A stretch of 64,000 nucleotides of DNA from Methanothermococcus sp. Ax23 (GCF_049075655.1 NZ_CP157522.1:64001-128000); one strand, 5' to 3'. Numbered from the stretch's first letter, positions 1,262-62,387 are shown. Numbers and translations: made by a program. Notes: generated by a model from the letters alone, not told the origin.

Positions 1262-2836
1262 ATGAAATTTACAGATGCAATATTAGATTTTTTAATGGAA
1301 AATAATATAAAAACAGTTTTTTCATATCCTGGGGAGCAGATTCTTCCATTGTATAATGCCCTAAATGAATCATCTATAAAAAATATAATGGTCAGGCATG
1401 AACAGGGAGCTCTACACATGGCAGATGGATACAGCAGAATTACAAACTATGTTGGAGTATGTTTGGCAACTGCGGGACCTGGTGCTACAAATTTGATGAC
1501 AGGCGTTGCTACGGCATACAAGGATTCATCATCTGTAATTGCCATTACTGGAAGATGCGAGCGAAAATACATAAATAAGAATTATTTTCAAGAAATGCAA
1601 ATGGATTTTTTAAATATATATAAAGGATACTTTGTAGATAAACCAGATGTAAGTTATTTCAAGAATGCACTTTCTGAAAGTTTAAATAGTAAAAAACCCA
1701 TTCATTTAAATGTCCCAAGTGATGTTCTTAAATTGGATGCAGATGATTACTCCACTAAATATGATGATGATAAAGATGAAGACATAAACTTAAAATGTGG
1801 CATAAATATAAAAGATATTAAAAATATTAAGGATATTAAAAAGCCATTATTGCTTATAGGTCAGGGCATTTATGGAACCTTATCATACAAAGAAATGCTG
1901 AAAATAAATAATATATTAAAAAACAGTAATATCCTCATTACAACAACCTATCCTGCAAGGGGAGTTATCGACGAAAAGGATAAAAACTGTTTAGGATTGA
2001 TTGGAAGAAGAGGAAACTTTATAGCAAATAAATACCTTTTGGAATGTGATGCCATATTTTCAATTGGTGCAAGTTTTTCATACAACACAATACCTGAAAG
2101 TATCCGAACAGAAGTTTTAAAGAAAATAATTGATTTAGATGCCAAAATTAATAATTTAAACGACATTAAGGCTTTGATTGACGCGTTAAATGATTTAAGG
2201 CATAGTTATACCCATGTAAATACAGATGGTAGCAATAAAGAAGACATTAGTAAATATAATTATAAATTAGACGAAAACCGAAGGTTTTCGTTGCTCGCTT
2301 GCTATCACAAGCGATTAGGTGATTATTCCCTAAAAATTAAGGAGATACTGGATAATTTACCAGATGACGCAATAATTACCACAGATGCTGGAAATCATAC
2401 GGTTTTTGTATCATTATTAAAAAAATGCGTAGTCCCAAGAAATATTATTTCATCTCACAGTATGGGAACCATGGGATTTGGACTTCCAGCTTCAATTGGA
2501 GTTAAATTTGGATGTTTAGATTATAACATTAATAGAGAAGTAGTTTCAATAAATGGTGATGGCGGTTTCCAGATGAATTTGCAAGAGCTCGCAACAGTAT
2601 CGGAAAATGATTTAAAAATACTTATTGTAATAATGAAAAACAACAGATTAAATGTATTTGGAGATATAAAGAACCCAGATTTCAACAAAATAGCAGATGC
2701 TTATGATATTGATAATGTTTATATAGAAGATATTGATGAGATAAGGGGAAACATAAAATATTATTTAAATAATAACAAACCTTATTTGATGGTAGTTGAA
2801 TGTGAAAATGAGGGGCTACCTAAACCTTTTGTTTAA
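1262..2836 (+). CDS. Thiamine diphosphate-binding acetolactate synthase large subunit-like protein
   Basis: YPGEQILP, RHEQGA.HMADGY, TAGPGATN, GTMGFGLPASIG and GDGGFQMN motifs; carries a 48 bp in-frame insertion. Confidence 0.9.
   Translation: MKFTDAILDFLMENNIKTVFSYPGEQILPLYNALNESSIKNIMVRHEQGALHMADGYSRITNYVGVCLATAGPGATNLMTGVATAYKDSSSVIAITGRCERKYINKNYFQEMQMDFLNIYKGYFVDKPDVSYFKNALSESLNSKKPIHLNVPSDVLKLDADDYSTKYDDDKDEDINLKCGINIKDIKNIKDIKKPLLLIGQGIYGTLSYKEMLKINNILKNSNILITTTYPARGVIDEKDKNCLGLIGRRGNFIANKYLLECDAIFSIGASFSYNTIPESIRTEVLKKIIDLDAKINNLNDIKALIDALNDLRHSYTHVNTDGSNKEDISKYNYKLDENRRFSLLACYHKRLGDYSLKIKEILDNLPDDAIITTDAGNHTVFVSLLKKCVVPRNIISSHSMGTMGFGLPASIGVKFGCLDYNINREVVSINGDGGFQMNLQELATVSENDLKILIVIMKNNRLNVFGDIKNPDFNKIADAYDIDNVYIEDIDEIRGNIKYYLNNNKPYLMVVECENEGLPKPFV
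2266..2318 (+). mobile_element. 43 bp double-hairpin micro-insertion with 5 bp target-site duplication (ATTAG)
   Basis: ATTAG|ACGAAAACC-GAA-GGTTTTCGT TGC TCGCTTG-CTATCA-CAAGCG|ATTAG; removing 48 bp leaves an intact reading frame. Confidence 0.75.
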
Positions 2837-13937: not shown

Positions 13938-14219
13938 CACGAATCATTAGGCAGGAAGCCCACGATTTCAATCGTTATACAAAACAATGTTTTGTAAAAT
14001 CTCTTACGAGATGGGAGGAATGCCAAAAAATTTATATAACATAGATGGTATAATAATAGTTAAGCCCTAAGGCACGAAGCTCGATAGAGTGGATACGGTT
14101 AAAAGGGTTTATTATTAAGAATAATATAGGGTTGCCTGTCAGCCAGCCTAATGTCCTCCGCCCTAATTATTAAGGGAGTTGGAAGGGCAAGCCAACGGAT
14201 TTATCCGTTGGTAGCTGAC
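13938..14219 (+). mobile_element. Non-autonomous IS200/IS605-family derivative (both end hairpins, no tnpA/tnpB)
   Basis: Left hairpin GAAGCCCACGAT-TTCA-ATCGT..GGGAGGAATG (interrupted) and right hairpin AAGCCAACGGAT-TT-ATCCGTTGGTAGCTGAC; no ORF between; boundaries approximate. Confidence 0.7.
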
Positions 14220-61873: not shown

Positions 61874-62387
61874 TTAATTTTTGTTTTTTAATTCATCCCT
61901 AATCTCTTTTAAAATTTCTTTCATTTCGTTCTGTCCTTTTATTATAGTTTCTTGCCCTTTTTTAACTTCTTCCAAAATTCCAAATATCATTTTAATATAT
62001 TTAACTCCTTCATCAAGTTTTTTATTCAATCGGAGTGAGCGAAGCGAACGGAGAGCTACGAAAACATTGGTTTTCGTTCAATTCCATTAAATCATCCGCT
62101 GATATTCTATTGATTCCTTTTGGAAATTCAATATATGAATTTAGTTCTTTTTCCTCAATCTCTTCTATTTTGATTAACTCATCCTTTTTTGCCAATGTCT
62201 TAATATTTCTTTTGAATAAATCTTTTATTTCTTCATCATCAAAGTTTGCCAAAATCCTAACTGTTCCATCCTCATAATTATAAACTACTCCATCAATACC
62301 TAAACCTCTCCCAATGTCTTCTATCCTATCTCTAAATCCAACATGCTGGACTTTACCATATATTTTTAACTCGTAAGTTGTCGCCAT
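61874..62387 (-). pseudogene. Acylphosphatase-domain/coiled-coil protein interrupted by a micro-insertion
   Basis: [16 protein letters not shown]; removing 52 bp restores a 153 aa ORF ending ..[21 protein letters not shown]. Confidence 0.8.
62026..62082 (-). mobile_element. 47 bp double-hairpin micro-insertion with 5-6 bp target-site duplication (ATTGA/ATTGAA)
   Basis: Minus strand: ATTGA|ACGAAAAC-CAAT-GTTTTCGT AGCTCTCCGTTCGCTTCGCTCACTCCG|ATTGA. Confidence 0.8.

Follow-up and report, generated by a model that had tools for sequence, protein, structure and literature searches.

A tagged two-hairpin repeat lying in frame in an acetolactate-synthase-like gene of Methanothermococcus sp. Ax23

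In the 64,000-nucleotide stretch of Methanothermococcus sp. Ax23 analyzed here (NZ_CP157522.1:64001-128000; hereafter the window, to whose 64 kb all coordinates refer unless a contig is named), a gene for an acetolactate-synthase-like thiamine diphosphate (ThDP) enzyme carries, at positions 2266-2318, two small hairpins flanked on either side by the pentamer ATTAG. How did this piece of DNA come to lie in frame within an enzyme gene, and is the flanking repeat a target-site duplication, as the first-pass annotation of the window had it? We favor, at a probability of about 0.75, the explanation that the element is one copy of a non-autonomous palindromic repeat of the Methanococcales, akin to the REP, RPE and MJRE repeats, and that it was guided in by the likeness between its own tag and the target. 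Below, G000 is the genome to which the window belongs (1.67 Mb, 98.9% complete), C1 is a contig of G000, and other G numbers denote other genomes.

The insert and its host gene

The gene and the parts of the element are laid out as follows, with the basis for each given in parentheses.

1262..2836, + strand: host gene, acetolactate-synthase-like ThDP enzyme of 524 amino acids (open reading frame; Pfam TPP_enzyme_N/M/C; NCBIfam)
2266..2270, + strand: ATTAG, the 5' tag of the repeat family (sequence; TTAG preceded by A in all 27 distinct matches)
2270..2317, + strand: D337-L352, the 16 codons added, within an inter-domain linker that is hypervariable and of low confidence (translation; ortholog alignment; Pfam; predicted local distance difference test, pLDDT)
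2271..2291, + strand: hairpin 1, ACGAAAACC/GAA/GGTTTTCGT, 9-bp arms, loop GAA (sequence; single-stranded DNA fold; covariation)
2292..2294, + strand: spacer TGC, nearly invariant across the family (alignment A1, described below)
2295..2314, + strand: hairpin 2, TCGCTTG/CTATCA/CAAGCGA, 7-bp arms, 6-nt loop (sequence; fold; covariation)
2314..2318, + strand: second ATTAG, counterpart of the one ATTAG that the closest ortholog, that of G003, has at its empty site (ortholog DNA)

The host enzyme resembles acetolactate synthase large subunits and scores under the cut-off of every NCBIfam equivalog, while homologs of its gene were found in all 41 genomes searched. The 48 bp encode D337-L352 (DENRRFSLLACYHKRL), between the Pfam domains TPP_enzyme_M (187-302) and TPP_enzyme_C (375-512); open reading frame and domain coordinates thus agree with the earlier claim that 16 residues were added, in frame, before the ThDP-binding domain. 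In an alignment of the 30 best orthologous loci, 29 of them from other genomes, none of those 29 had the 16 residues, whose presence in orthologs was named beforehand as the observation that would speak against an insertion. The closest ortholog, in G003 (87% amino acid identity by BLASTP, 90% in other comparisons), reads NYKLGDYSLK, and its DNA, AATTATAAATTAGGTGAC, matches the window sequence except that exactly 48 bp are missing and ATTAG stands there once. The empty site YKL-GDY that had been predicted is accordingly present in the nearest relative, in protein and DNA alike. Judged by these orthologous sequences, the comparison shows the host gene to have acquired the 48-bp copy once its lineage had parted from that of the nearest sequenced relative.

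The ortholog alignment further reveals an indel-rich linker around the insert, its length differing in nearly every lineage. An AlphaFold model built from 28 orthologs had a mean pLDDT of 73.8, with residues 316-350 under 50, and the linker that bears the insert, and joins the middle to the C-terminal ThDP domain, is probably disordered. Given a linker that is both variable in length and low in pLDDT, the model makes it plausible that the insertion is tolerated at the protein surface. Since no stop interrupts the host frame within the element, 16 additional residues should be translated from it; if the element is read through, the peptide DENRRFSLLACYHK is to be expected in the protein. An RNA library yielded a contig of 345 nt that covers 2078-2422 without any difference from the window, which gives a weak hint, DNA carry-over being possible, that the element is retained in RNA. 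No read or contig joint that skips the element was found in the sequencing-run data searched, in which runs X2, X3 and X11 left parts of the host gene without cover and are uninformative there.

The arrangement that the first-pass annotation described, i.e. ATTAG, 43 bp with two hairpins, and ATTAG again, can be read directly at 2266-2318. The final A of hairpin 2 doubles as the first base of the second ATTAG (position 2314), and hairpin 2 is one nucleotide longer than in the family consensus (8-bp arms, loop TAC), so that the insert measures 48 and not 47 bp. The loop of hairpin 1 (2280-2282) is inverted in this copy, GAA standing on the tag strand as opposed to TTC in the family consensus. 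Folded as single-stranded DNA, the + strand reaches -14.9 kcal/mol (z -5.3) and the - strand -16.0 kcal/mol (z -5.6), each equalled by 0 of 200 shuffles. By hand count 21 of the 43 bases are G or C, as compared to 32% in the genome. Within the window the 43-mer has a single occurrence (0 of 100 shuffles) and the hairpin-1 pattern two, against 0 expected. Terminal inverted repeats are lacking, as the two ends of the element belong to two different hairpins that are not mutually complementary; together with the many copies in the genome, this bears out the description of a very small repeated element without such repeats. An Rfam search of 2200-2400 returned two chance-level matches only (E 1.7 and 5), far under the gathering scores.

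A repeat family of the Methanococcales and its copies

The family to which the window copy belongs has the layout ATTAG tag, hairpin 1, TGC, hairpin 2, with a consensus of 47 bp including the tag. In the 1.67-Mb genome the hairpin-1 pattern occurs 23 times, and an nhmmer profile made from six copies found 39 full-length copies at E<=1e-8. A strict pattern, TTAGACRAAA-gap-TTTYGTTGC, had 40 matches in G000; among 40 genomes of the order 14 contained it, both families being represented, and the reversed control had 0 matches. The base before TTAG, which this pattern leaves free, was A in all 27 distinct matches across genomes; the 5' ATTAG is hence a conserved part of the family, and the idea of a target-site duplication as its general mark fails at this point.

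Alignment A1 comprises 31 distinct copies from 12 genomes. In it, 93.1% of the cells were paired, as compared to 29-45% with partners slid, two-sided changes occurred in 10 of the 17 pairs with a score that 0 of 500 shuffles reached, and both stems were supported. Conservation is seen at the foot of hairpin 1 (ACGAAA/TTTCGT) and in the TGC spacer; the top of hairpin 1 and the whole of hairpin 2 show compensated changes or are swapped for other hairpin modules. On the tag strand most loops read TTC or TAC, which makes them GAA or GTA with a closing C-G on the opposite strand, and GAA and GTA triloops closed by C-G are unusually stable in DNA. With a cut-off of E<=0.001 and up to 144 candidates scored per genome, a covariance model of the family (R1) matched in 23 of the 40 genomes (82 matches in G000; 59, 49, 47, 43 and 30 in five others) and gave no match in the remaining 17, among them 8 of 13 of the same genus. 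With many matches in some genomes and none in 17, the patchy distribution of these sequences fits mobility.

Longer forms with four hairpins (~95-100 nt) start with ATTAG and hairpin 1 and end with hairpin 2, and the unit of 43-48 bp is therefore the short form. A sister subfamily with the tag ATTAA, the spacer AGC and other stems was seen in G003 (loci L123-L128, at least six copies) and shows that the family tag itself diversifies. At one orthologous insertion, C1:1276528 and its counterpart L121 in G003 (contig C52:5597-5659), the two genomes carry different hairpin-2 modules, which by this comparison are exchanged in place; the L121 copy has ATTAG on both flanks. Another multi-hairpin repeat, containing a stem like that of hairpin 1, occurs in three copies (C1:200943, 337727 and 1309774) and stands at contig ends in G003. 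A link of this three-copy repeat (at C1:200943) to rRNA was dropped, Rfam giving no match in the surrounding 5 kb.

Most of the copies in G000 are passengers in a 1.5-kb insertion sequence (IS) of IS200/IS605 type that carries TnpB only, and in ~30 miniature derivatives of it. This IS, represented by C1:1124969-1126500 and eight further full copies, lies outside the window, inserts after TTAC, and has hairpins of its own that differ from those of the micro element. A 64-bp piece of its left end stands isolated in the window (13953-14016, 90.6% identity) and also at two other sites of the genome. The repeat occupies three sites in the IS: within tnpB near the N-terminus (seven of nine full copies), further along tnpB (three copies), and 34 nt inside the right end (22 of the 37 such ends, e.g. 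C1:1302343-1302450). In studied TnpB systems the right-end region encodes the scaffold of the guide RNA; by analogy, the copies there would lie in guide-RNA-encoding sequence and may matter for the mining of these TnpBs.

This leaves ~12 solo copies, several of which overlap the final codons of genes and provide the stop. The window holds another copy besides that in the ThDP enzyme gene:

62025..62082, - strand: second family copy, 52 bp (62030-62081), with another hairpin-2 module and ATTGAA on both sides (sequence; relatives)

It truncates the C-terminal extension of a gene with an acylphosphatase domain (62022-62387, - strand), and the site is filled in G000 and G012 and empty in G010 and G003, whose genes read on into the extension.

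The length of the insert differs between kinds of host genes. In housekeeping genes it is 48, 48 and 51 bp, i.e. a multiple of three, while in IS genes it is 47, 47 and 49 bp with the frame broken; the copy at a gene end has 52 bp. In the frame of the ThDP enzyme gene the 47-bp consensus would run into the TAG of the right-hand ATTAG, and the window copy has one extra loop base. Since multiples of three are confined to housekeeping genes, being in frame is what selection leaves and not a property of the element; as far as these lengths go, they show a survival filter rather than a design.

Junctions and the mode of integration

Filled and empty forms were compared at 11 loci. A junction repeat of 5-6 nt was found at three of them, a partial one at another, and the remaining seven had no tag in the empty site and a repeat of 0-2 nt:

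Window 2266-2318, + strand: 5-nt repeat ATTAG; single ATTAG in the empty site of G003
C1:478406: 6-nt repeat ATTAGA; one copy in the empty site of G012; AT-rich spacer, alignment softer
Window 62030-62081, - strand: 6-nt repeat ATTGAA; left "tag" non-canonical (ATTGA) and equal to the right flank; single ancestral copy inferred
N-terminal site of tnpB: partial; ATTAG on the left, ATTGC or ATAGC on the right; insert 47 bp; empty form CAATAGCA
IS right end: no tag, 0-2 nt; 22 filled and 15 empty copies, TTAG in 0 of the 15 empty ones
IS gene with the insert in G028 and G015, compared with five G000 copies that are empty: no tag, 0-2 nt; 47 bp
eIF-2B-like gene (named from translated flanks) filled in G010, empty at G000:349469: no tag, repeat AT; 48 bp
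Glycosyltransferase gene (named from translated flanks) filled in G003: no tag, repeat TA; 51 bp, in frame
Composite element in G013: no tag, 0-2 nt
Nested site in G003: no tag, 0-2 nt; 45 bp
IS transposase gene in G003: no tag, 0-2 nt; 49 bp

The empty sites of the 62030-62081 copy in G010 and G003 are related but not identical in sequence, while those of the glycosyltransferase are at C1:115218/115219 in G000 (window 51218/51219) and in a paralog 1.1 kb further on (C1:116322). Left out of the comparison were C1:744072 (AT-rich spacer, where a CTAAT in G003 is ambiguous as target), C1:1012382 (broken synteny), C1:1536606 (variable N-terminus) and C1:1266025 (shared with G003, downstream flank not conserved). 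Within G000, ATTAG was found on the 3' side at only two of ~15 independent short-form loci.

On the strength of these alignments, the junctions show ATTAG to travel with the element and no target duplication of fixed length to be made, and long flanking repeats are confined to targets with a prior likeness to the tag. The duplication at 2266-2318 is thus real as a pattern, but it is neither general nor fixed in length. The inference of a staggered cut from a clean duplication is not supported as a rule, given the seven loci without a tag in the empty site, and the absence of flanking duplications from other copies, which the first-pass annotation had listed as evidence to the contrary, holds for most copies, with the exception of the three loci with 5-6 nt. 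From base composition we estimate the chance of a given pentamer at a given place to be ~0.002; two exact ATTAG repeats and one ATTGAA repeat in some 11-15 loci are far above this, and likeness of the target therefore matters.

A resemblance of the target to the tag that the element carries would accordingly guide integration, by way of either a single-strand nuclease that reads the tag in donor and target or microhomology-guided template switching from a donor at stable DNA hairpins; the comparisons suit both alike. Either way, targets that read ATTAG or ATTGA beforehand would be the only ones to gain a flanking repeat of 5-6 nt, and elsewhere the repeat would be of 0-2 nt.

Two enzymatic alternatives bear on the same junctions. 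The three 5-6 nt direct repeats, with a single copy in the relative's empty site at two of the loci and an inferred one at the third, are what a cut-and-paste micro-transposon would produce if its transposase preferred ATTAG-like sites and duplicated the target by a 5-bp staggered cut, and the non-canonical left pentamer at 62030-62081, equal to the right flank, is likewise as in a true duplication. Such a transposon is nevertheless decidedly unlikely, with 0-2 nt only in seven of the 11 comparisons and the left ATTAG still there, with a left tag constant across genomes (27 of 27) where target duplications should vary by site, with no terminal inverted repeats, and with no transposase of matching ends. 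Single-strand transposition of the REP/RAYT or IS200/IS605 kind, in which a Y1 HUH enzyme would read the hairpin foot and the tag, cut after TTAG and paste by a TTAG-like target without duplication, would suit the empty sites that hold the tag once and the stable GAA and GTA loops of the complementary strand. It would also suit the position of the tag directly 5' of a hairpin, which mirrors the GTAG-tagged REPs, found within genes as well according to PMC3733652. We hold this, too, to be unlikely, as the Y1/RAYT domain PF01797 had 0 matches in the 98.9%-complete G000 (control positive in 6 of 14 genomes) and occurred in only 6 of the 40 genomes of the order, intact in three, without relation to element counts, and as the seven empty sites without TTAG are forbidden by a strict target requirement. 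The hairpins beside the Y1 genes of relatives are unrelated to the element, and a link to these transposases was rejected, as were links to the resident IS200/IS605-type element (target TTAC, hairpins differ) and to an IS607-type element whose ends are unrelated. The latter is present in two copies (C1:46658-48671 and 1510565-1512578) with a serine recombinase of 211 and a TnpB of 438 amino acids, one of the recombinases having an in-frame TAG. Like the first-pass annotation, which knew of no mobilizing enzyme, we can name none, the ends or hairpins of the candidates not matching.

Other explanations concern expression and ancestry. Were RNA excision, ribosomal bypass or frameshifting to remove or skip the element, the protein would not contain the 16 residues, and copies out of frame would do no harm. 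The tnpB gene has features that suit this: it is split by a 47-bp copy in seven of the nine full IS copies with both halves open in all seven, the pairwise ratio of nonsynonymous to synonymous substitution rates (dN/dS) is ~0.1-0.25 on either side of the insert (dS up to 0.33 between filled copies), and three copies have ATT as the codon on each side of the 47 nt. However, identity among the IS copies is mosaic, one pair having a dS of 0 downstream and 0.14 upstream of the insert, which points to gene conversion between them, so that the constraint may predate the insert. Other element-bearing IS genes have further frame breaks or stops (G028, G003), the housekeeping copies are multiples of three as expected if read through, the RNA-library contig keeps the element and no joint skips it, and flanks as variable as these would leave no room for a conserved bulge-helix-bulge. 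Skipping of the element is consequently hardly credible to us, and compensation of the tnpB frame break at the RNA or ribosome level is unlikely. A bolder proposal, and a long shot, is an archaeal counterpart of the yeast mitochondrial GC clusters, spread by an enzyme or a replication-coupled process that would read "ATTAG plus hairpin foot" on single-stranded DNA, with the tnpB breaks compensated by bypass or frameshift; such compensation, if true, would be the first recoding tied to a mobile micro-element in archaea. That no insertion took place, an ancestral linker segment having been lost in all relatives and the hairpins being due to chance, can draw on the indels of the linker in every lineage, but its probability is practically negligible, for the same 42-48 bp unit, its stems covarying, recurs across the order and at 39 or more places of the genome, and the segment absent from the closest ortholog is exactly the repeat unit.

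Our preferred explanation, a non-autonomous repeat guided in by its tag, has evidence weighing against it as well. Guidance by likeness is inferred from 11 comparisons only, and several comparisons fall in AT-rich spacers where the alignment is soft (C1:478406; C1:744072 was left as ambiguous). The three repeats of 5-6 nt could equally be true duplications made by a site-preferring enzyme. Confidence in the structural model, built from 28 sequences, is no more than moderate (mean pLDDT 73.8), and sequencing runs X1-X3, which carry the identical filled allele, may stem from the source strain and so give neither independent support nor an empty allele.

Relation to known palindromic elements

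The locus provides a clean, ortholog-checked archaeal example of a protein lengthened by selfish hairpin DNA, and the family behind it can be searched across an order by its tag, its two covarying stems and the covariance model. Two classes of junctions and no cognate transposase make it a tractable case for the spread of REP-like and GC-cluster-like elements. In practical terms, such inserts inflate linker variation in alignments and break contigs, several contigs of G003 ending at copies.

Compared with described systems, the family works like RPEs, MJREs, REPs and GC clusters, and departs in defining features from classical MITEs (miniature transposable elements with inverted repeats), RAYT-linked REPs and IS200/IS605-derived PATEs. 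Terminal inverted repeats and a fixed-length duplication at every copy, by which classical MITEs are recognized, are both missing. With the PATEs and MITEs derived from IS200/IS605 elements it has in common the hairpins, the lack of terminal inverted repeats and the lack of target duplication; however, it shares neither hairpin nor target (TTAC) with the resident IS, of which it is a passenger and not a derivative, and instead of resident-IS ends and a fixed target motif in every empty site we found seven empty sites without TTAG.

REPs, as described in PMC3733652, are palindromes of 20-40 bp with a conserved tetranucleotide at one end, many of them just downstream of genes and some inside, and the CGTC type is presented there as being without a dedicated transposase. 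Our family resembles them in its one-ended conserved tag on a palindrome, in analogous form only, i.e. (A)TTAG and not GTAG or CGTC, and differs in that its unit is a pair of different hairpins, that G000 has no RAYT/Y1 gene and that the host is an archaeon. The yeast mitochondrial GC clusters (e.g. GC42) are ~42-nt G+C-rich hairpins in an A+T-rich genome, with constrained stems and with modules that merge and shuffle; PMC4478555 also reports that the putative target repeat is short (AG), that the expected footprint is missing from many empty sites and that the mechanism is unresolved. A swap of hairpin-2 modules, at one orthologous locus, is found here too, whereas the GC clusters are organellar, eukaryotic and without sequence relation to our element. 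Byps, which are inserts related to GC clusters, are skipped by ribosomes; nothing in the archaeal family shows skipping.

In-frame palindromic repeats are, as a kind, already known from RPEs and MJREs. According to PMC2229807, some copies of the palindromic MJRE repeats of Methanocaldococcus jannaschii lie inside protein genes without destroying them. The likeness to our family extends to the archaeal order, to interspersed palindromes and to a position within genes. MJRE1-3, palindromic repetitive elements that Suyama, Lathe and Bork reportedly described in 2005, are said to be ~100 bp long, a size also seen in the multi-hairpin forms of G000; the window copy, in contrast, is the two-hairpin short form of 43-48 bp, and MJRE was compared by description. 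In the accessible literature, which does not cover subscription journals, we found no ATTAG-tagged family and, on MJRE, only a citation of Suyama 2005; the same literature, the MJRE paper not included, yielded no ATTAG tag, order-wide spread, nesting in TnpB elements or pair of junction classes.

The RPEs of Rickettsia lie in frame inside conserved genes whose products are still functional (PMC2229807). Like our element they are small in-frame palindromes in conserved genes, to which the same logic of empty and filled orthologs applies. They are, however, bacterial, 105-146 bp in length, unrelated in sequence and built as one long stem-loop with terminal inverted repeats, whereas the window element consists of two separate short hairpins and a one-sided tag. 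What defines the RPE and MJRE kind, i.e. a palindrome in frame in a conserved gene and absent from the orthologous site, was found three times in the present family: in the ThDP enzyme of G000, in the 48-bp insert of G010 and in the 51-bp insert of G003.

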